From the NCBI GenBank assembly GCA_015066395.1, contig SVOL01000006.1:10218-74217 (forward strand): a stretch of DNA of 64,000 bases, read 5' to 3'. The stretch comes from Oscillospiraceae bacterium (GTDB lineage Bacteria; Bacillota; Clostridia; Oscillospirales; Acutalibacteraceae). Both the position numbers and the translations under genes were made by a program. Of the stretch, positions 8,492 through 64,000 are shown in pieces (the first letter of the stretch is position 1; every line of letters begins with the position of its first letter). Below the pieces are notes generated by a model. The model was not told where the DNA came from, did not search any database, and saw only the letters and a program-made list of their open reading frames with translations.

Positions 8492-8510
8492 TTCCTTAAA
8501 ACAATTTAAT

Positions 8511-8697
8511 ATTTCCTGCCCTGTGCGCGAATGCTTTCCTTTATAACCCTACAAGCTACAAATCGGGAGTCAGGTCTCCGACAGTGGGTATGCAGGCCTC
8601 CCGCACTTTGCGGACGTTGGAAGCACAAAGCTGTTGGGATGACACCCACCTGCTATTCGCAGGTTATTATCGGTAGTTGTACGGCAGGGCGGGATGT
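8511..8697 (+). ncRNA. ssrS: candidate 6S-like structured RNA
   Basis: About 187 nt with no credible ORF. 5' CCTGCCCTG pairs with 3' CAGGGCGGG, and GCGAAT with ATTCGC, forming a closing stem. Internal GTGGGT/ACCCAC pairing and small hairpins. ACACCCACCT on the 3' side resembles 6S RNAs I recall. Immediately followed by a terminator. Confidence 0.4.
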
Positions 8698-8698
8698 T

Positions 8699-8735
8699 AA
8701 AAAAGACGCAAGTTTTACTTGCGTCTTTTTTATTT
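8699..8735. terminator. bidirectional intrinsic terminator
   Basis: AAAAAAGACGCAAGT ttt ACTTGCGTCTTTTTT. Serves the ncRNA candidate (+) and ybaK (-). Confidence 0.8.
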
Positions 8736-32824: not shown

Positions 32825-32826
32825 AA

Positions 32827-32865
32827 AAGAAACGACAATTTTCGACAGAAGATTGTCGTTTCTTT
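32827..32865 (+). terminator. intrinsic terminator after tRNA-Trp
   Basis: 12-bp stem AGAAACGACAAT / ATTGTCGTTTCT followed by a T-run. Confidence 0.75.
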
Positions 32866-32958
32866 TTGTTCTTTTCACTTTTCTCTTTTCGTTCTTCTCT
32901 CTTCTCTCAAATTGTCGTTTCCAGAGAAAAGATAAGAGAGAAAAGAGAAGAGAAAAGG
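32866..32958. repeat. long imperfect inverted repeat of a polypyrimidine tract and its polypurine complement
   Basis: CT-rich 32871-32907 pairs with GA-rich 32923-32958 (about 30 of 36 positions including G-T). The loop carries a second copy of ATTGTCGTTTC (32911-32921), which duplicates the terminator 3' arm. Confidence 0.7.
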
Positions 32959-32974: not shown

Positions 32975-33089
32975 GTGATATTGGGCTTCGCCCAGTTTTG
33001 GCGGCGAATATAATATCACTGAAACCGTAGGTTTCAATATCACATTTTGCGTAACAAAATATATCACTCCGCCGAAGACGGAATATCAC
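32975..33089. repeat. heptamer-punctuated hairpin array A (GTGATAT x1, ATATCAC x4)
   Basis: ATATCAC at 33013, 33037, 33061 and 33083, with an inverted copy at 32975. These are separated by unrelated hairpins at 32982-32994, 33020-33036, 33044-33060 and 33068-33082. Confidence 0.85.
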
Positions 33090-33207
33090 TTAAAACTAAC
33101 GGTTATGTAAGAATTCGAATCCATACGCAAAAACGCCAAAATAACTGTATATCGTTATACCGACTTTTCACGCATTTTTTCAGGGCAAAGCAACAAAAAT
33201 CACCCCC

Positions 33208-38059: not shown

Positions 38060-38345
38060 ACAAAAAACTCCCGTCCTTTGTTTCCAAAAGGACGAGAGTG
38101 ACTCCCGTGTTACCACCTTAAGTTCATAGACAACTCACATTATCTACCTCACAGAGTACGGCCGAAGCGATACTCCTGCACTTGATTACGGTGTGCTTTC
38201 CGTCGTAGCCTACTCCTAATTGTTTTGGTACGCAGCTCCAAGATGTATTCACATTTCATATCCACGAGCCTCTCATCAGCCGGCATCTTTCTGTTTGGAA
38301 TCAGAAATGCTACTATTTCTTTTCATAGCCTTTCTTATGCATAAC
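38060..38345 (-). promoter_or_regulatory. T-box riboswitch leader, Tyr (UAC) specifier
   Basis: On the minus strand: UGAUGAGAG GA/AG-box region. GAA-UAC-A specifier loop (UAC = 38247-38245). T-box AAGGUGGUAACACGGGAG (38120-38102). Terminator CUCUCGUCCUUU...AAAGGACGGGAG plus a U-run (38098-38062). Confidence 0.9.
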
Positions 38346-56956: not shown

Positions 56957-57302
56957 GGGGATGTAAAGGTTTCGACAGGGATTTTGAACTGCGATAAGCA
57001 TGCAGCGTTACGGTTACGCTTTGAAGACCGAAATTTTAAAAATAACTGACAAAAATACAGTTGCTTTTGCAGCTTAATTAAGCTGCCGTTCTGCCGCTGA
57101 GTACCGCGGCGGCGGTTAGAGCGTCATTTTGCGGTGAACGTGAGCAGATGAGTTTCTCGGCTCTGCCACGGCGAGAGGATACCAAGCGCTAAAGCCTTTT
57201 TGTCGGCGTTAGTGTAAGGGAATCTCAAATGACAAAATAAGCATGTAGAAAGTTGCAGGAATGAATTTTTGGACGCGGGTTCGATTCCCGCCATCTCCAC
57301 CA
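56957..57302 (+). ncRNA. ssrA: tmRNA
   Basis: 5' GGGGATGTAAAGGTTTCGAC and 3' GGACGCGGGTTCGATTCCCGCCATCTCCACCA tRNA-like ends. Tag frame ...GAC AAA AAT ACA GTT GCT TTT GCA GCT TAA (…DKNTVAFAA). Confidence 0.95.
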
Positions 57303-57337
57303 AAATCGACAGGGTTCTTCTGAGCCTTGTCGATTTT
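57302..57337. terminator. terminator after tmRNA
   Basis: AAAATCGACAGGG ttcttctgag CCTTGTCGATTTT. Confidence 0.7.
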
Positions 57338-57429
57338 ACTTTTTACCTCTTCACTCTTCACTTTTAACTATTTTCTGCTTGTCGACCTTCGGCAAGGAAT
57401 ATTCTCGCGTTTCCTGCATAGAATTACTA

Positions 57430-57458
57430 TTGACAGATAATGCTTTTTGTAGTATATT
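57430..57458 (+). promoter_or_regulatory. consensus sigma-A promoter (TTGACA-17-TATATT)
   Basis: -35 at 57430-57435 and -10 at 57453-57458. Confidence 0.6.
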
Positions 57459-57464
57459 TGTCAT

Positions 57465-57540
57465 GAAGAGACTACCATTTGTCTCGGAGACCTCCGTCGT
57501 GCTCGGAGCAGTTTCCGAACTTTGTGTGGTCTCTTTTTCA
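57465..57540 (+). ncRNA. candidate small RNA 1 (about 75 nt)
   Basis: Starts about 7 nt after the -10. GAGAC/GTCTC elements occur four times, allowing alternative pairings. Terminator-like GGAGACC...GGTCTC followed by TTTTT (57534-57538). Confidence 0.4.
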
Positions 57541-57693
57541 TTTATAATCACAACATCATGTAAGACCACCCTTTATGCTCCTTTGGCTTGTTTTTTCTAT
57601 TTCATTTTGAGCAATGCTTTCGATAGAATTAACAAACAGACTACGATTAGAAACCGAATCGGTATCACAATCAGAGAATTTTTAATGTTTTAC

Positions 57694-57722
57694 TTGACAT
57701 CCTCGGATGATTTAGGCATAAT
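57694..57722 (+). promoter_or_regulatory. consensus sigma-A promoter (TTGACA-17-CATAAT)
   Basis: -35 at 57694-57699 and -10 at 57717-57722. Confidence 0.55.
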
Positions 57723-57728
57723 ATGTGT

Positions 57729-57800
57729 AGAAGGGTTAACGTTGATATCACTCTGGTATTGTACCTGAGTAATGCCTTGCGTTGACCCTTCGTTTTATTA
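57729..57800 (+). ncRNA. candidate small RNA 2 (about 70 nt)
   Basis: 12-bp closing stem GAAGGGTTAACG (57730-57741) / CGTTGACCCTTC (57780-57791) followed by GTTTTATT. It encloses ATATCAC (57745-57751) plus a hairpin CTCTGGTA ttg TACCTGAG. Confidence 0.45.
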
Positions 57801-57806
57801 TAAATT

Positions 57807-57864
57807 ATTTCATATTTTGTCGTAAAGCAAAGTATTTCACTATAAGCGAAAGTTCAAACTTATA
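57807..57864. repeat. heptamer-hairpin array C (ATTTCAT-hairpin-ATTTCAC-hairpin)
   Basis: ATTTCAT at 57807-57813, hairpin ATTTTG/CAAAGT at 57814-57833, ATTTCAC at 57834-57840, hairpin TATAAG/CTTATA at 57841-57864. Confidence 0.7.
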
Positions 57865-57868
57865 CAAC

Positions 57869-57897
57869 AAAAAAGCAGAGCATACGCTCTGCTTTTT
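57869..57897. terminator. bidirectional terminator (nuclease gene 3' end)
   Basis: AAAAAGCAGAGC atac GCTCTGCTTTTT. Same stem as the terminator at 60325-60356. Confidence 0.8.
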
Positions 57898-57905
57898 ATT
57901 TATTA

Positions 57906-59798
57906 TCAGTTGCTGATCTTATATGTAACCGTTATCTCCTGGATCCTGTAGTGACCCGAGGAATCGGGGTTGGTTATAGTCAGCTTTGTGCCATTGATGT
58001 TAGAAACAGTCGTCGTAGCCGTACCCACGCCCGATACGGTACCCGTCGAGAACTGAGTATTGGTCTTAAAGTGGTTGCCTGCCGCAGTTGTAAACACAAC
58101 AGTATCAATCTTATAGCCTGTCGGCACAGAAACTGTAAGGGTATTCTTTCCGTAGATTCTGATTGCCGTACCCGTAGCATAGTATCTCGGCGGAGTGCTT
58201 CCGTTATTCTTTACAGCAGAAACAGTCACATCTTCGAATGTAACCGAGCTAAAATCAGCACCGTTTGCATAGTTCTCGTCGTAGAAGTTAACGGTTGCTT
58301 CCTTTTCCTTGCCTGTTGTTGCACCGGGAATTGACTTGAACGACTGACAGCCTATATACGTATAGGTAGTAACGCCGTCAACCGTGGCATAAATGACAAA
58401 CAAGAAGTATTCATTGATAACCGATTCGGAAAGGTCCTTTAAGCATATCTGATACTGATAACCGTCGATCTCAACCGCGTCGGCATAAATGGTCGATCGC
58501 TTAATGGGTGTCTTAACTGCATACTGTGACGAAATATACCAATCAGCCGATATATCCGAAGCGCTAAGCGGTGCAACAATGAATCCGATCTCACTGGCCG
58601 TTCCAACCACAGAAGCCGGAAGTGCACCTCTGGCCCTTATGCCTATAGTACCGTCATTACGGAAACTGAACGCATTATCTGCGGCAGTTGCGATAGGTGC
58701 CGCTGTGAAAGCTTGACCTGCAGTAACGCTGATCTCCTGACCGGGGAAATAAAGTTTGCCGTTTGTATCGGTGAAATAGCCTGCGGTTGCAGGAACGGTA
58801 ACCTTACCGCCACTGATATTAACCGTTTCACCGCCGAATGTAACGGTGTTCGGTGTAACTACACCGGAATTGCCGCCGGAAGCAATACCCGACGGTGTAG
58901 GCATATCATCGGGAATCTCCTGACCAAACATCAAAAACGCAAATTCGGGATAGTCAACAAAAACATTACGGACACCGGTCATTGACTGGACCGCATCATT
59001 TCTACCAAGTTCCCAAGTATCAACGGGATCTTCTTCCATCCAACGAAGAAGCACGTCCATATTCTCCATAACGCCAGAGGTGCCCCACATTTTACTGTAG
59101 ATGGTGCTGTTACCCCAACGAGTATAAACGTAAAGCACTATTCTTGCACAGTCACCACGGAAGTTTTCACCCGGATCGTAATAATTCGAGCTTTCGCCGT
59201 AAGCTGTATTACCTCTCGAGCTATTTTCTCTTGAAAGTGCCGGACGGATCATCATAACATCGTCTTCCTGACGCGATTCATCACCCTTACTGTTAGGCCA
59301 GGTGTGTTCACGGTTCCAGGTCGAGCCGCCATCCCAAGTACTGCTGCCCAATGTAGCTGAATAGAAGAAACATATCTTTGAGGTATCGCCGCGTACACAG
59401 TCAGCATACTTCAAAAGAGTCTTATTAGCATCATAGTTGTTTTGGGTATGATGCTTAGCGGTCATCATATCCTGCAAGGCTTCATGCAGGTCGCTGTTTT
59501 GCGCGTTGCTCTGAGTAGTGCCGCCACTATACAAAGATAGCTTGTCATACGTATAATTTCCCGTATAATAGCTATTGGCATAGGTAGTCAAAAAAGTTGC
59601 AAGTTCCTCATGAGCACCCCAGTTTGCAACGATGGATTTGCCATTCCAAGCGTTGCTTACAATATTATAATCGACATCCGAAGCACTTGTATAGCCTGTC
59701 GGTGTTGTGGCAGAAGCGGCAAGGACCGAAACATCTATACCGACAAACATACCAAATATGATTGCGATGGACATTACAATACTTAATATTTTCTTCAT
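57906..59798 (-). CDS. secreted endonuclease I family nuclease with a long C-terminal extension
   Basis: Signal peptide. NREHTWPNSKG ... MIRPALSRENSSRGN ... GDCARIVLYVYTRW resembles the Endonuclease_1 family. About 330 aa of beta-rich C-terminal sequence of unknown type. Confidence 0.65.
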   Translation of the reverse strand: MKKILSIVMSIAIIFGMFVGIDVSVLAASATTPTGYTSASDVDYNIVSNAWNGKSIVANWGAHEELATFLTTYANSYYTGNYTYDKLSLYSGGTTQSNAQNSDLHEALQDMMTAKHHTQNNYDANKTLLKYADCVRGDTSKICFFYSATLGSSTWDGGSTWNREHTWPNSKGDESRQEDDVMMIRPALSRENSSRGNTAYGESSNYYDPGENFRGDCARIVLYVYTRWGNSTIYSKMWGTSGVMENMDVLLRWMEEDPVDTWELGRNDAVQSMTGVRNVFVDYPEFAFLMFGQEIPDDMPTPSGIASGGNSGVVTPNTVTFGGETVNISGGKVTVPATAGYFTDTNGKLYFPGQEISVTAGQAFTAAPIATAADNAFSFRNDGTIGIRARGALPASVVGTASEIGFIVAPLSASDISADWYISSQYAVKTPIKRSTIYADAVEIDGYQYQICLKDLSESVINEYFLFVIYATVDGVTTYTYIGCQSFKSIPGATTGKEKEATVNFYDENYANGADFSSVTFEDVTVSAVKNNGSTPPRYYATGTAIRIYGKNTLTVSVPTGYKIDTVVFTTAAGNHFKTNTQFSTGTVSGVGTATTTVSNINGTKLTITNPDSSGHYRIQEITVTYKISN

Positions 59799-59849
59799 AA
59801 AAGCACGTTCCTTTCAGAAAATAGGATATGCGCATAAAATTTCATAATA

Positions 59850-59877
59850 ATTATACCATATTTTACAAAAATTGCAA
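59850..59877 (-). promoter_or_regulatory. sigma-A promoter of the nuclease gene (TTGCAA-16-TGgTATAAT)
   Basis: -35 at 59877-59872 and extended -10 at 59858-59850 on the minus strand. Confidence 0.55.
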
Positions 59878-59889
59878 GGGTTATATAGA

Positions 59890-59920
59890 ATATCACTGTT
59901 TTGTTGAGATCGGAACAAAA
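59890..59920. repeat. solitary ATATCAC + hairpin unit
   Basis: ATATCAC at 59890-59896, followed by TTTTGTT gagatcgg AACAAAA (59899-59920). Confidence 0.6.
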
Positions 59921-59976
59921 AATGCAAATGAACATATAGTTTGATTAAAAAATTGACACAATTTTTCAAAAAAGAC

Positions 59977-60005
59977 TTGCATTTTCATAACATATATGTT
60001 ATTAT
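59977..60005 (+). promoter_or_regulatory. promoter of tRNA-Ala (TTGCAT-17-TGtTATTAT)
   Basis: -35 at 59977-59982 and -10 at 60000-60005. The tRNA starts at 60020. Confidence 0.5.
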
Positions 60006-60019
60006 ACCATTCGTGGCTT

Positions 60020-60095
<76 letters not shown>

Positions 60096-60096
60096 G

Positions 60097-60126
60097 AAAA
60101 AAGCACTTCGTAAGAAGTGCTTTTTT
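60097..60126 (+). terminator. intrinsic terminator after tRNA-Ala
   Basis: AAAAAAGCACTTC gtaa GAAGTGCTTTTTT. Confidence 0.8.
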
Positions 60127-60130
60127 CAAT

Positions 60131-60294
60131 TAAATCCACCCCTTCGGGTGGAATAAATCGTCTCATACGATGAAATCCCCTGTGGGGATGAAATCCGCCT
60201 AGACTGCGGAATAGCGGATTTAATTTCATCTGAGTGAAACGAAGATTTCATCAGCGATAGCTGATTTCATCCTTGCGTCAGCAAGGATTTCATT
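60131..60294. repeat. heptamer/nonamer-punctuated hairpin array B with dyad polarity switch (GATGAAATC | GATTTCATC)
   Basis: GATGAAATC at 60169 and 60187. Reverse complement GATTTCATC at 60244 and 60263, plus one-mismatch copies at 60222 and 60286. At least 7 unrelated hairpins lie between them. Central 8-bp hairpin at 60191-60221. Confidence 0.85.
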
Positions 60295-60324
60295 ATTTAT
60301 GCAAAGAGTCAAATTTTACTCAAA

Positions 60325-60356
60325 CAAAAAAGCAGAGCTTTCGCTCTGCTTTTTTA
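60325..60356. terminator. bidirectional terminator (GH16 lipoprotein gene 3' end)
   Basis: AAAAAAGCAGAGC tttc GCTCTGCTTTTTT. Confidence 0.8.
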
Positions 60357-60364
60357 GTTTACTT

Positions 60365-62296
60365 TTAGTGGAAGTACATCTTCTGTCCCTTCAACTGATA
60401 AACGTGAACATAGTCAATAATAAACTTGTTGGATTCGGTCCACTCCTTATTACCGTCAGGCACAACGAATTCTCTTGCCGAGAAGCCGACAGCCATACTA
60501 AGTCTCAAGAATGCCGGTGTCGAGAAGGCCGACTTTGTAACCTCAAGCTCAGCCTTTCTTGCATTCTCAACAGTAGTGCCAAGGCTTGCGGCCGACGAAG
60601 CGTTACCGAATACCATAGCAGCGGTTGCATAGTCGTAACGAGAGGTAACCTTACCGTCGATGGTAAAGTAAAGCTCGTTAGCATCCCAACCGTAACCGAA
60701 GGTGTGGAAATCAAGATAGAAGCCTCTGTTATCAGCATTGTACTGAATGTTAGACTTGTTAAATGCGTAACCGTTAGGAATTCTGAAGTTGTACTTGGAC
60801 AAAACGGTACGGATACCGGTGGTGTTGATCCAAGCGAAGCTGTTCTGGAGTGTCAAGTGACCAGCGCCGTAGGATTCGTTAACGTCGATCTCCATACGTC
60901 CAAGGCCCTTATCGAGGTACTGATTATCAACCCACAAAGAGGTCCAGAAGCCCTGACCGAAGGGTTTGAGACAGCTGGTCTCAACATAACCGTACTGGAA
61001 AGTCATAATATCTTTAGTGGTCAAATGGCCGCCATAGTAATACTTATCGTCATAGGCAGCGCAAATATAAAGCTTGCCGTCCTTGACATAGTTGTTGTTG
61101 AGTTCCTTAGAAGCACGGGCAGGTGTACGTCCATTAAGACCGGTCGAATAGATGGTGCTGTCACGGCCATAGGATACTATCCACTTCTTAGTGTTGATAG
61201 CACTGCCGTCAAAATCGTCACCCCATGTGAGGGTGTAATAATTATCGCGGTTATAATTCGAGATAACGTTCTTATAGTTACCGACAACGGTTGAAGCGTC
61301 AGTTAAGGCGAGCGCTCCGGCGTTAACCATCTTAGTAAACTCGGAAACAGCCATTGCTGTAGCGGCAGGGCTTCCGCCGTTTAAGAAGATCTTATTGCCT
61401 GCAACCTTAATAGTGTACTGATTTTTATCAGTAATAGCAGGACGTCCTGCACGGTCACAATCGCCGATAACAACCTCGTATGTATACTCGGTCTTGGTCT
61501 TGGTCTTATCAAGTGAATTGATGGAGTTTACATAGTTCTTATAGTCAGTTGCAGTCTCGCAGTTACTCCAGGTCTTGCCGTAATACATATTGATCATTTC
61601 CTGGGTAAAGGTGGGAGCCGTCGCGTCAGTTGCTTCCTTCAAGGTAACACCAAGCTTGGAGGTCAAGGTCTTCTGGAGTTCTTCAAGCTGAATTCTTACC
61701 AAGTAAGACATATTGTACTGAGGAACAACCAAAGTATACTTGTTATCAAGCTTAACACCGTTAACTGTAACGCCGGCAGTGCCTTCAACGGGCTTAACAT
61801 AAGAATATACAACACCGCTCAAAACAGCATCAGGCTTCAAAATGTTTGCGATAAAGTATGCAACAGCCTGCTTGATAGCAGCATCAGAGAAGCCGGTGAT
61901 AACAATGTCACCGCTGTTGGCATAGATGATGTAGTCATCATTGCTGCCGCCGCCCAAATTTGTAAGAGCAGCTACTGCTTCAGCAACGATAGGACGATTA
62001 CAATCACCAATGATGATTTCGGTGGCATCGCTGGTCTCGCTGTCAAAAGAGCAGGAAACCTCTATGTTGTCCCAAGTGTTCATCACATTGTATACATCCA
62101 ATGCGAGTGTGGTTCTGTACTCCGAGCCGGCAGGAACGATAACGCAAAATTCACCGTTCGTTATCGGCACAACACTGCTTGTTCCGGCAGGGTCGTTGGA
62201 AGCTGCACTCGAAGTATCGCCGCCTTTGCCGCCCGAACAAGCGGTAAACAGAACTAAAACCACAAGTAATAATGCAACAAGTCTGATTTTCTTCAT
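60365..62296 (-). CDS. lipoprotein with a C-terminal GH16 (beta-glucanase/laminarinase-type) catalytic domain
   Basis: Lipobox LFTAC-SGG. EIDVNES matches the GH16 ExDxxE catalytic motif. Two N-terminal repeats of an IGDC...G module. Confidence 0.8.
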   Translation of the reverse strand: MKKIRLVALLLVVLVLFTACSGGKGGDTSSAASNDPAGTSSVVPITNGEFCVIVPAGSEYRTTLALDVYNVMNTWDNIEVSCSFDSETSDATEIIIGDCNRPIVAEAVAALTNLGGGSNDDYIIYANSGDIVITGFSDAAIKQAVAYFIANILKPDAVLSGVVYSYVKPVEGTAGVTVNGVKLDNKYTLVVPQYNMSYLVRIQLEELQKTLTSKLGVTLKEATDATAPTFTQEMINMYYGKTWSNCETATDYKNYVNSINSLDKTKTKTEYTYEVVIGDCDRAGRPAITDKNQYTIKVAGNKIFLNGGSPAATAMAVSEFTKMVNAGALALTDASTVVGNYKNVISNYNRDNYYTLTWGDDFDGSAINTKKWIVSYGRDSTIYSTGLNGRTPARASKELNNNYVKDGKLYICAAYDDKYYYGGHLTTKDIMTFQYGYVETSCLKPFGQGFWTSLWVDNQYLDKGLGRMEIDVNESYGAGHLTLQNSFAWINTTGIRTVLSKYNFRIPNGYAFNKSNIQYNADNRGFYLDFHTFGYGWDANELYFTIDGKVTSRYDYATAAMVFGNASSAASLGTTVENARKAELEVTKSAFSTPAFLRLSMAVGFSAREFVVPDGNKEWTESNKFIIDYVHVYQLKGQKMYFH

Positions 62297-62380
62297 AATT
62301 AACTCCTTTTAAAATATTGCAAAATAACTTTACAAGTATATATTACCACAACACGAACAAAAACTCAATAACAAAATGCA

Positions 62381-62415
62381 AGAAAAAGCACCGTTTCCGG
62401 TGCTTTTTCTTAAAA
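62381..62415. terminator. terminator after the dockerin-GH16 gene
   Basis: AAGAAAAAGCACCG tttc CGGTGCTTTTTCTT. Confidence 0.75.
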
Positions 62416-62419
62416 AATT

Positions 62420-64000
62420 TTAACCTACAAGTTTGTTTTTGCCAACCAGGTAACCGTTAAGAGTTGCGAGGTCTTCTTCAGTAATGAGACCGTCGCCTGT
62501 AACCTCAGCCGCGCCAAGATCCATATTCTTAAAGTCATACTTGGTCCAGCCGGCAAGATATCTTGCAACGTATGTTGCGTCAAGAGCATCAACATTGCCG
62601 TCACCGTTAACGTCACCACGCTGATTGCTTGTTCCGAGATAGTAAATCGTCTGGTTATCGTACTGATAAACATGAACGTAGTCAACAACGAACTTGTTAG
62701 ACTCCTGCCACTCTGCGGCATCGTCTTCAATTACGTAGTTCCTTGTTGCAAAACCGACAGCCATACTGAGTCGGATGTAAGCAGGAACCGCAAAACCGGA
62801 TGCCGAGAGCTGAGGCTCAATCTCCTGCAACAAAGCTGCATCGAGCGCTGCAGTCGAATACTCAGTTGTTGTACCGGTAAGATCCTTGGTAGCGACAGGC
62901 TCGGTTGCATAGTTGTAACTATGTGTCACCTTACCGTCAACTGTAAACAAGAGCTTATCTGCATCCCATGCATAACCGAAGGTGTGGAAGTCAAGATGGA
63001 AGCCTCTGGTATCTTTGTTATAGGTGTAGTTGGTACCATAGAAGCCGACGTTCTGCTTTAAGAACTTCTTATAAGTCTTACCAACGAATGTACGACCGGT
63101 AGTATTAAGCCATGTGATAGAGTTCTGGAGAGTTACGCTGCCTGAGCCGTAGGACTCGTTAACGTCGATCTCCATACGTGCATAAGCGTCATTTGCAAGA
63201 CCTTCGTTATCGACCCACATCGAAGTCCACAAGCCCTGTCCAAGAGGCTTGAGACAGCTGGTCTCAACATAACCGTACTGAATTCTCATGGTATTTCTGG
63301 TAGACAAATGTCCGCCGTAATAATACTCATCATCATAGGTAGCAGCTATATAAAGCTTGCCGTCCTGAATGTAGTTGTTATTGAGTTCCTTAGAAGCACG
63401 CGCAGGCAAACGTTCGTTAAGACCATCAGAGTAGATGGTACTGTCACGTCCGTAAGATACAGCCCACTTACCGGTGTCGATAGAAGAACCATCGAAATCG
63501 TCAGCCCATTTCAGGGTGTAATAGTTGTTGCGATCATAAGCACCGATTGCATCGTAATAGTCATAAGAGGCAGTCGAAGCATCGGTAAGGGTAAGATCGC
63601 CGGTATTTACCATCTTAGTAAACTCGGAAACCGCCATTGCGGTAGCGGCAGGGCTTCCGCCGTTGAGGAATATCTTATTGCCGGCAACCTTGATGGTGTA
63701 CTCGTCAGTATCGGTGATCACCGGGCACTGATAACGAGCGCAATCACCGATAACGATTTCATAAACAGTTTCAGTACTCGACTTCGCTGTATTATAGGAA
63801 GCGAGTTTTGCAACATAAGCCTGATATTCAGCTGCAGTATCACAGTTCTTCCAGCCCTGTGCTTCGAAGACGTTTATATCTGCCTGAGTAAAGGTTGTAG
63901 ACTTAGTATCAGTCTTTTCAGTAAGGGTATAACCCGCCTTTTCGCTGATAGCGGCAGTCAGTTTATCAAGCTGAATTCTTACCAAGTAAGACATATTGTA
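62420..64000 (-). CDS. GH16 paralog with a C-terminal type I dockerin (5' end beyond window)
   Basis: Same architecture as the upstream paralog (EIDVNES). Additional GDVNGDGNVDALD...EVTGDGLITEED dual Ca-binding dockerin repeats. The reading frame stays open to position 64000. Confidence 0.85.
   Translation of the reverse strand, partial: YNMSYLVRIQLDKLTAAISEKAGYTLTEKTDTKSTTFTQADINVFEAQGWKNCDTAAEYQAYVAKLASYNTAKSSTETVYEIVIGDCARYQCPVITDTDEYTIKVAGNKIFLNGGSPAATAMAVSEFTKMVNTGDLTLTDASTASYDYYDAIGAYDRNNYYTLKWADDFDGSSIDTGKWAVSYGRDSTIYSDGLNERLPARASKELNNNYIQDGKLYIAATYDDEYYYGGHLSTRNTMRIQYGYVETSCLKPLGQGLWTSMWVDNEGLANDAYARMEIDVNESYGSGSVTLQNSITWLNTTGRTFVGKTYKKFLKQNVGFYGTNYTYNKDTRGFHLDFHTFGYAWDADKLLFTVDGKVTHSYNYATEPVATKDLTGTTTEYSTAALDAALLQEIEPQLSASGFAVPAYIRLSMAVGFATRNYVIEDDAAEWQESNKFVVDYVHVYQYDNQTIYYLGTSNQRGDVNGDGNVDALDATYVARYLAGWTKYDFKNMDLGAAEVTGDGLITEEDLATLNGYLVGKNKLVG

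Follow-up and report, generated by a model that had tools for sequence, protein, structure and literature searches.

An array of palindromes behind a tRNA-Ala gene

The window analyzed here is a stretch of 64,000 nucleotides from an Oscillospiraceae bacterium (contig SVOL01000006.1, positions 10,218 to 74,217). At 60127-60297 of the window, between a tRNA-Ala gene, which together with its terminator spans 60020-60127, and the GH16 terminator at 60326-60355, lies an array of short palindromes with a non-random structure that is far beyond chance. Each half of this array matches the Rfam family RF01706, the Gut-1 motif, over the full length of the model, and we conclude that positions 60096-60325 are very probably one divergent two-armed Gut-1 element. 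The features of the locus are given below, together with a second element of the window; loci and contigs from other genomes and metagenomes are referred to by L numbers.

60020 to 60095, plus strand: tRNA-Ala(GGC) gene with encoded CCA, upstream of the element (ARAGORN; Rfam tRNA, 61.4 bits)
60096 to 60127: terminator hairpin H0 with A-tract and T-tract, GAAAAAAGCACTTC gtaa GAAGTGCTTTTTTC (14-bp perfect inverted repeat)
60127 to 60199, plus strand: short arm (leader, H1, S2, S3 and four linkers), the stretch modelled by Rfam (RF01706 match)
60128 to 60137, plus strand: leader X (AATTAAATCC), which pairs locally in H1 or with the centre
60136 to 60151: hairpin H1, CCACCC cttc GGGTGG (sequence; co-variation in relatives)
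60152 to 60158, plus strand: degenerate linker AATAAAT (sequence; AATAAAT/GATAAAT at the same position in the subfamily relatives L247, L148 and L320)
60157 to 60171: hairpin S2, ATCGT ctcat ACGAT (sequence)
60169 to 60177, plus strand: linker GATGAAATC (exact copy)
60175 to 60189: hairpin S3, ATCCCC tgt GGGGAT (sequence)
60187 to 60195, plus strand: linker GATGAAATC (exact copy)
60195 to 60209: hairpin S4, CCGC ctagact GCGG, the last of the short arm (sequence; relatives have S4 here, for example GCCtgcGGGC)
60214 to 60225, plus strand: centre X' (GCGGATTTAATT), site of the polarity flip (leader complement; co-variation)
60218 to 60295, minus strand: long arm (L3, L2, L1 and four linkers), the second RF01706 match
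60228 to 60246: hairpin L1, ATCT-GA-GT gaa AC-GA-AGAT, an eight-position stem with a tandem G.A/A.G mismatch on the plus strand only
60244 to 60252, minus strand: linker GATGAAATC, on the plus strand GATTTCATC (exact copy)
60250 to 60265: hairpin L2, ATCAGC gata GCTGAT (sequence; the same slot in L307 is ATCAGC gtta GCTGAT)
60263 to 60271, minus strand: linker GATGAAATC, on the plus strand GATTTCATC (exact copy)
60269 to 60288: hairpin L3, ATCCTTGC gtca GCAAGGAT (loci L256 and L340 have ATCCTTGC..GCAAGGAT in the same slot)
60286 to 60294, minus strand: outermost linker AATGAAATC, on the plus strand GATTTCATT (sequence)
60296 to 60325: tail, from the long arm to the second terminator, with a small palindrome GAGT..ACTC at 60306-60321 (inverted repeat)
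60326 to 60355: second terminator with A-tract and T-tract, which ends the GH16 gene (hairpin and promoter/terminator scan)
End at 60365, minus strand: GH16 gene
32976 to 33091, minus strand: second element of the window, partly deleted, behind tRNA-Met/tRNA-Trp (RF01706, 44.4 bits at 33008-33091)

An earlier sequence-only reading of this DNA had described constant heptamers that clamp variable palindromes, one flip of polarity, and left and right linkers that are complementary to each other, flanked by tRNA-Ala, two terminator hairpins and GH16. The flanks are as it stated, with the terminator hairpins at 60096-60127 and 60326-60355, and the anatomy holds throughout the family. On inspection of the sequence all seven of its hairpins prove correct base for base, with a better reading for one weak hairpin: the stems CCACCC/GGGTGG (60136-60151), ATCGT/ACGAT (60157-60171), ATCCCC/GGGGAT (60175-60189), AAATCCGC/GCGGATTT (60191-60221), ATCAGC/GCTGAT (60250-60265) and ATCCTTGC/GCAAGGAT (60269-60288) are all there, as are the constant element GATGAAATC at 60169 and 60187, its reverse complement GATTTCATC at 60244 and 60263, and one-mismatch copies of the latter at 60222 and 60286. 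The 8-bp AAATCCGC/GCGGATTT pairing and hairpin S4 are competing folds. The weak hairpin, TGAAA/TTTCA, is present, but the better reading of this segment is the L1 hairpin at 60228-60246 (AUCU-GA-GU-GAA-AC-GA-AGAU), whose purine-purine internal loop is kept in relatives, for example as ATCTGAGGC..GCCGAAGAT and ATCGAAC gaa GTGAGAT.

Both the constant and the variable parts of the array depart strongly from shuffled controls. GATGAAATC occurs five times in the window against 0.9 expected, a count that 0 of 100 shuffles reach, and four of the five copies fall within one 103-nt stretch of the array. Folding of 60127-60297 is equally strong whichever strand is taken and whether RNA or DNA parameters are used (z = -6.4 for RNA and -6.5 for DNA on the plus strand, -6.6 for RNA on the minus strand), and no shuffle folds as stably. 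Tandem Repeats Finder reported no repeat in the array, because its units differ too much from one another.

The sequence-only reading could place the array in no repeat family that it knew, and had itself named a hit to a described family as grounds for giving up that claim. The Rfam scan supplied two such hits: the short arm matches RF01706 on the plus strand at 60127-60199 with 43.2 bits (model positions 1-77 of 77; E = 3.9e-7 for the local region and 3.6e-5 for the whole window), and the long arm matches on the minus strand at 60295-60218 with 43.8 bits (again 1-77 of 77; E = 2.9e-7 and 2.6e-5), the whole-window values referring to 64 kb searched against 4227 Rfam families. Since the two matches lie on opposite strands, the flip of polarity is that of two convergent Gut-1 arms. 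Both scores are below the curated gathering score of the family, 50 bits, which is an operational cut-off rather than a structural feature; they fall short because two linkers are degenerate and the S2 and S3 stems are short. The nearest colinear relatives, which belong to the window copy's subfamily, exceed it (L256, 65.4 and 54.7 bits; L307, 74.5; L340, 55.9; L344, 56.7 and 50.2; L240, 72.1), and canonical Gut-1 copies score up to 88 bits. Matches to CRISPR, C/D-box snoRNA and miRNA families were at chance level (CRISPR, 17 bits against a cut-off of 45).

Each arm has three consecutive hairpins with unrelated stems and four UGAAAU-type linkers, as Gut-1 does; in the cmscan alignment the linkers of the short arm are TTAAAT, ATAAAT, TGAAAT and TGAAAT, and those of the long arm are TGAAAT four times. 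The leader resembles CAAyGAAAU in both the window copy and the motif, and both come from gut or rumen: here, cohesin, dockerin and GH16 genes flank the locus on identical JGI metagenome contigs, and one homologue is named Ruminococcaceae. The window copy differs in belonging to a GAUGAAAUC subfamily, with Watson-Crick AUC/GAU clamps in place of AU/GU, and in its two degenerate short-arm linkers. Its leader/centre complement, its H0 before the leader and its inverted long arm are colinear with 44 other elements. Taken by itself, the locus is unremarkable, a somewhat degenerate copy within a family that is already catalogued.

A two-armed unit shared by relatives

Gut-1 was described from 43 human-gut metagenome sequences and rated as RNA on the basis of covariation, with no function proposed (Weinberg et al. 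2010, PMC2864571). The raw seed alignment of that study, with its flanks, already runs from a tRNA 3' end through a terminator and a GUGAUAU array to an AUAUCAC array (PMC2864571). To place the window copy in this family, we gathered relatives by two scans, one for three copies of GTGAAAT over one genome per species and one for the window's linker variant over metagenomes, and removed chance matches and plain tandem repeats by demanding different spacers and a leader/centre complement. Many metagenome matches to the subfamily pattern proved to be unrelated perfect tandem repeats with ATTTCATC and were filtered out. In a loose three-linker scan of viral contigs, which was swamped by chance matches, 13 of 120 loci were verified by their hairpins, and L077 is a full dyad; we draw no conclusion about phages from it.

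Forty-five non-redundant elements align end to end with the window copy, and the leader, linkers and hairpin slots stay colinear in this alignment. The repeat is dispersed, and its hosts are mostly metagenome-assembled genomes (MAGs) of gut and rumen Clostridia (Oscillospiraceae, Ruminococcaceae, Acutalibacteraceae and 'Eubacteriales'), joined by Akkermansia with single arms. Two metagenome contigs, L001 and L002, match the window with 100% identity over the whole locus and therefore carry no comparative information.

The unit shared by more than 45 non-redundant loci from gut and rumen Clostridia is about 200 nt long. Behind tRNA-CCA and a terminator come the leader and the short arm, then a centre that complements the leader, and last the long arm in inverted orientation. 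H0 is an A-tract/T-tract hairpin that starts 0-2 nt past the CCA in relatives, and it is part of the repeated unit, being common to the near-identical copies in L155, L186 and the L246 group; in the window, it begins directly after the CCA of tRNA-Ala, and the leader directly after H0. Across the family the leader reads CAAC(G/T)AAAT followed by X, and the short arm is made of H1, whose 5' strand is X, and three small hairpins, with linkers that in the window read GAUGAAAUC on the tRNA strand. The centre is a second copy of X' followed by ATTTCA; in the long arm, ATTTCAC/ATTTCATC connects three stems of 7-8 bp. What Rfam models is the leader with the short arm, in the sense of the upstream tRNA. 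Some relatives have tails with GAGAGTT..AACTCT that are comparable to the tail at 60296-60325.

Pairing in the stems is strongly maintained: a perfect stem of at least 5 bp is found in 57% of 308 hairpin slots, against 4% after shuffling. Column-wise counts were restricted to H1 and the leader/centre helix, where the MAFFT alignment is precise enough for them. The columns of H1 are 97.3% paired, and both sides have changed in 5 of its 6 pairs; the leader/centre helix is 97.8% paired among 45 relatives, with both sides changed in 7 of 11 pairs, in a set of elements that had been selected in part for this complement and not for H1. X, its adjacent X' and the central X' therefore show three-way covariation, in two mutually exclusive helices. 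In the window the leader at 60128-60137 is complementary to 60216-60225 at 10 of 10 positions (100%), and it is this central segment, 60214-60225, that marks the flip of polarity, which the sequence-only reading had assigned to an ordinary hairpin at the centre. The bases that flank the linkers also co-vary between the arms of the 45 elements (Spearman 0.86 and 0.92), a correlation that largely reflects two subfamilies.

Among classifiable arms, 60 belong to convergent pairs, 33 stand alone and only 1 is divergent. The Akkermansia MAGs L126 (2312-3306), L130 and L185 contain single-arm Gut-1 copies above the Rfam cut-off; in L126, three of these lie on one strand about 450 nt apart. As the Akkermansia arms have no inverted partner, the dyad seems to be specific to Clostridia.

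The picture drawn by the Rfam entry is that of a three-hairpin RNA of the human gut only, with no function proposed since 2010, and its model is a single arm that includes neither the dyad nor the leader/centre pairing, the tRNA-terminator link or the insertion polymorphism. What goes beyond that entry is that the natural unit in Clostridia is two-armed, about 200 nt long, and has a co-varying leader/centre pairing. The tie to terminators and tRNA genes, the lack of a promoter of its own, the polymorphism at its site, the opposite bias of its loops and a frequent PF05635 neighbour, all taken up below, are further additions to that entry. Together, such family-level facts make an old, unexplained motif testable, and they warn that it is being annotated as a small RNA perhaps without good reason.

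Transcription signals and the question of RNA or DNA

Genomic position was counted over the 46 strictly defined elements with enough upstream sequence. In 29 of the 46, a tRNA 3' end of the same sense lies 28-50 nt upstream of the leader, with H0 alone between them. The upstream tRNAs have 12 identities and are not enriched for Glu. The other elements stand behind protein genes or behind a G+C-rich hairpin without a T-tract, and single arms likewise start at the T-tract of a terminator. A trailer specific to tRNA-Ala, as the sequence-only reading had suggested, is thus unsupported, the same element being found behind 12 kinds of tRNA and some protein genes. Beyond the long arm the orientation of genes is mixed (13 co-directional, 11 convergent).

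The window contains three Gut-1 matches, all at its only two tRNA loci. At the second of these, the element listed above comprises a terminator (32825-32866), a CT/AG-rich inverted repeat of about 90 nt in the place of the short arm (32870-32958), most of which has been lost, and then a hairpin left as a remnant, followed by the centre and by a long arm that is complete (33008-33091) and has GUGAUAU linkers. Its tail, GAATTCGAATCCATACGCAAAAACGCCA, resembles a decayed tRNA T-arm and 3' end.

A scan of 60096-60360 predicted no promoter, and there is no space between the T-tract of H0 and the short arm. Beyond the long arm, promoter-like sites point outward in 11 of 42 elements, where they belong to the next gene, and inward in 2 of 42. 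Any transcript of the arms would therefore be read-through, barring cases such as L127/L128 and L339. These observations bear on the view taken in Rfam, under which each arm of Gut-1 would be a true structured non-coding RNA with GUGAAAU as the transcribed sense. Three to four hairpins with A-U/U.G closing pairs and exposed GAA triplets would then form a platform that binds protein or RNA, and the dyad would represent either two convergent copies or one minus-strand RNA that stops at the two-way terminator of the tRNA gene. Covariation was the ground on which Weinberg et al. rated the motif as RNA (PMC2864571), and our alignment adds strong compensatory variation in the stems, as well as a closing pair that itself co-varies between subfamilies (AU..GU in canonical copies, AUC..GAU in the window). 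H0 has an A-tract besides its T-tract and could stop a minus-strand transcript, and the single arms L127 and L128, with terminators of their own, and L339, with a long arm in the 5' leader of a gene, also fit an RNA. We nonetheless regard this reading as rather unlikely, in view of the missing promoter space before the short arm and the rarity of inward sites at the long arm. Presence and absence at an orthologous site and near-identical copies in unrelated contexts, both described below, also speak against it, as do loop composition and a tandem mismatch that favor the other strand. Literature searches for follow-up or expression data on Gut-1 led to the 2010 paper only (PMC2864571).

Strand-specific features of the hairpins provide a separate line of evidence. 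Among 735 stem positions, 724 are Watson-Crick pairs, 6 are G.U and 5 are A.C. We considered the scarcity of G.U as a mark of DNA hairpins and dropped it after a control with terminators: H0 stems of the same loci are alike (585 positions; 573 Watson-Crick, 8 G.U and 4 A.C, that is 1.4% G.U), so this scarcity fails to separate DNA from RNA. Loops read in the ATTTCAC sense begin with G and end with A in 126 of 217 cases (58%), mostly as C-GNA-G, and run from T to C in only 5 of 217, an asymmetry that is absent from H0 loops. The commonest are GAA (35), GCA (28), GCAA (13), GTA (9) and GTAA (8); the closing pair is C-G in 178 of the 217 hairpins, and about half of the tetraloops are not of the RNA-type GNRA form. 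C-GNA-G is the motif that characterizes DNA mini-hairpins of unusual stability. L1 likewise has its tandem G.A mismatch in the ATTTCAC sense only. The conserved G of GUGAAAU, by contrast, gives A-U and U.G closing pairs only in the sense modelled by Rfam, with U-A in the window's subfamily.

The elements could also be two-way fail-safe insulators that shield the neighbours of highly transcribed tRNA genes, a reading that is compatible with the movable cassette we propose below and that we consider doubtful. A polymerase that gets past the strong terminator on either side would cross one arm and then meet, in the outgoing arm, stable hairpins each followed by A-UUU-CA, which could act as weak terminators or pause sites, or offer C-containing single-stranded spacers for the loading of Rho. 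This fits a location that is always directly behind a terminator and often directly before the next promoter, and a dyad symmetry that presents the same layout from either direction. It also fits the outgoing sense of the loops, which are stable C-GNA-G or GNRA loops with ATTTCA after every hairpin; the scan indeed calls the outermost hairpins terminator-like in the outgoing sense (60269-60288 on the plus strand, 60152-60135 on the minus strand). Yet three U in a row make a poor terminator tract, and insulation leaves unexplained why the heptamer is invariant, why leader and centre pair, and why single arms stand in the non-terminating sense behind a terminator. The orthologous locus L364, moreover, copes with two plain terminators.

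The exposed linkers might also be codon-like sites for a tRNA anticodon loop, making each arm a multivalent, T-box-like platform for tRNA, which would fit the link to tRNA genes. GUGAAA is the exact complement of positions 33-38 of tRNA-Glu(UUC) (UUUCAC), whose loop is CUUUCAC in 3 of 3 genes, and only this tRNA fits the canonical linker among about 40 loop types from loci L123-L362 and the window. By our own estimate, a heptamer would match some loop by chance in a few percent of cases, and the fit may well be coincidence. The neighbouring tRNAs, being of 12 kinds, show no preference for Glu, the linker AUGAAA of the window's subfamily loses the pair with C38, and GAA alone is unpaired in the Rfam structure. 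We consider this explanation highly improbable.

Gut-1 as a candidate movable cassette

Several observations suggest that the element moves, or is exchanged, as a unit. One stretch of at least 283 bp, made up of H0, the dyad and a tail of 70 nt, is repeated with 91-98.6% identity: three copies follow different tRNA genes and one follows the tail of another copy, with a different terminator directly after each. L155 and L186 hold two copies each, 95.5-96.8% identical including H0, whose outer flanks are unrelated; in each pair, one of the two does not follow a tRNA gene. The related genome L364 retains SmpB, the tmRNA, whose tag is the same, tRNA-Ala(GGC), which is identical, and the GH16 genes. 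It has no array, and between tRNA-Ala and GH16 there are only two terminators, 20 nt apart; the array is therefore present or absent at an orthologous site. Another contig, L363, whose GH16 gene is 88% identical, stops 23 nt past the shared terminator. L229 has duplicated and rearranged arms, and the second window element is a partial copy. Arms lie within 150 nt of a contig end in 26 of 125 cases; in gut Clostridia, Gut-1 elements cause short-read assemblies to break at tRNA loci.

A tail of about 70 nt is common to L164, L236, L246, L152, L235 and window 33094-33150 (AAAA..GAGAGTTCGAAT/GAGAGTTCAACTCT..CAAAAA..ATATCTTTTT). This tail contains a T-arm-like palindrome and is carried along with the unit. 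Because the tail resembles a tRNA T-arm at some loci, we examined whether it derives from the 3' end of the neighbouring tRNA as an attR-like copy and rejected the idea, as the tail travels behind different tRNAs and does not match the adjacent one.

We propose, with a probability of roughly one in two, that the Gut-1 element is a movable, non-autonomous cassette of the type of repetitive extragenic palindromes (REP) and miniature inverted-repeat transposable elements (MITEs), rather than a gene-specific regulator or a free-standing small-RNA gene. Such a cassette would occupy the quiet gap between the 3' end of a gene and the next terminator or promoter, often carrying a terminator of its own, and copies would spread or swap between gaps of this kind. 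The variable palindromes would fold as hairpins in single-stranded nucleic acid, and the invariant heptamer (GUGAAAU, or AUUUCAC on the other strand) would be the part read by a putative trans-acting factor. The effect on the host would likely be neutral or mildly insulating.

Comparison with described systems defines how far this resemblance goes. Like the REP palindromes and bacterial interspersed mosaic elements (BIMEs) of enterobacteria, which are mobilized by REP-associated tyrosine transposases (RAYT), Gut-1 elements are extragenic, multicopy palindromes at the 3' ends of transcription units, with short linker motifs, both orientations and variable presence between strains. REP palindromes, however, share a consensus while their linkers vary, whereas Gut-1 has constant linkers and unrelated palindromes: the seven stems of the focal array are unrelated to each other and to those of the second window element. 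Orientation in a BIME also alternates unit by unit, while Gut-1 flips once. No RAYT-like gene was seen, no directed search being possible with 64 kb of the genome. The MITE-like repeats BOX, RUP, Correia and ERIC are likewise 150-300 bp long, non-coding, intergenic, structured and modular with variable unit number, they have near-identical copies in different contexts, and they break assemblies. Gut-1 shares with them near-identical copies in unrelated flanks (L155, L186 and the L246 group, 91-98.6% identical) and presence or absence at an orthologous site (L364). At the junctions of near-identical copies, no terminal inverted repeats with a target-site duplication were found. Gut-1 differs in its extreme preference for the spot right after a tRNA-CCA or a terminator, and in that copies across genomes keep structure rather than sequence.

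Other systems are more distant. The attC sites of integrons have short conserved cores, variable sequence constrained by a hairpin and a strand-specific folded form, but each is one imperfect hairpin of 60-140 nt with R and L boxes (GTTRRRY) and comes with gene cassettes and an integrase, none of which is found at the Gut-1 locus. We rejected a CRISPR array, which would have direct repeats of 23-47 nt, unique spacers that are not palindromic, and cas genes or a leader: the constant part is only 7-9 nt, the spacers are palindromes of 9-14 nt, and the polarity flips. With intrinsic terminators the array has in common G+C-cored hairpins with stable loops at 3' ends, and H0 and the hairpin at 60326-60355 are ordinary terminators; the array hairpins differ in having no U-tract (AUUUCA at best), in standing three to four per arm and in being joined by an invariant heptamer.

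Several points weigh against a movable cassette. We found no transposase, no duplicated target site and no terminal inverted repeats that were clear. The junctions of near-identical copies have sharp ends (CCA|GAAAA... on the left) and no duplication, with possibly an 8-bp inverted CAGAAAAG/CTTTTCTG in one group only. The lone empty site, L364, could reflect a deletion rather than an insertion, and searches of plasmid and phage collections gave no match. The logic of heptamer and hairpin is kept from Clostridia to Akkermansia, which points to a selected function and not just to selfish spread. L127 and L128 are single arms with their own terminator downstream and look like small-RNA genes, and the long arm of L339 serves as a gene's 5' leader. 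The strand features conflict, since closing pairs favor the Rfam sense and loops and tandem G.A the opposite one, and the scarce G.U pairs, once counted for a DNA hairpin, are not diagnostic.

A more specific version of the cassette reading, which we offer tentatively and consider unlikely, is that Gut-1 is no small-RNA gene but the cis-acting part of a new class of small mobile cassettes that home to the tRNA-CCA/terminator junction and bring a terminator of their own and sometimes a PF05635 gene. Their hairpin arrays, with C-GNA-G loops, nearly pure Watson-Crick stems and the invariant heptamer, would be read as folded single-stranded DNA by a putative enzyme. If true, this would link elements at tRNA flanks with the intervening sequences of 23S rRNA. 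These, too, lie beside or inside stable-RNA genes, and PF05635 genes are found near at least 16 loci related to the window's; on the other hand, the window copy has no PF05635 gene, and Gut-1 stands behind tRNAs rather than inside rRNA helices.

The PF05635/TIGR02436 gene encodes a 115-residue four-helix bundle ('23S rRNA intervening sequence protein', Avd-like) and starts about 20-60 nt past the long arm at at least 16 loci, among them L129, L148, L163, L178, L180, L192, L247, L266, L282, L288, L312, L320, L326, L332 and L339. These loci lie behind different tRNAs. In L339 the gene is situated between both arms, and in L204 and L232 it stands behind a tRNA with no array between. The window contains no PF05635 gene.

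The two terminators that flank the array in the window, 60097-60126 and 60326-60355, are alike (AAAAAAGCA....TGCTTTTTT, 70% identity), each being symmetric with an A-tract and a T-tract. This likeness may be that of typical two-way terminators of the organism and nothing more. The second is possibly also the terminator region that preceded insertion of the array.

Farther out, the identity of L001 and L002 to the window is 100% over 57295-64000 and breaks off precisely where the tmRNA gene (56957-57302) has its 3' end. There both contigs carry a serine recombinase, helix-turn-helix regulators and small open reading frames (14930-19349 in L001). This segment resembles an island that has integrated at the 3' end of the tmRNA gene, one that the window lacks or has in another form. 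A protein with an Endonuclease_1 domain (57906-59798), encoded between tmRNA and tRNA-Ala, is absent from L364. Window 57906-64000 and L001 1862-11932 form a cellulosome-type locus, in which cohesin and GH16-dockerin genes alternate and internal repeats of about 590 nt are 77% identical. Elsewhere in the window, routine RNA genes were found at 8510-8699 (6S RNA, 82 bits) and 38085-38335 (T-box leader, 109 bits).

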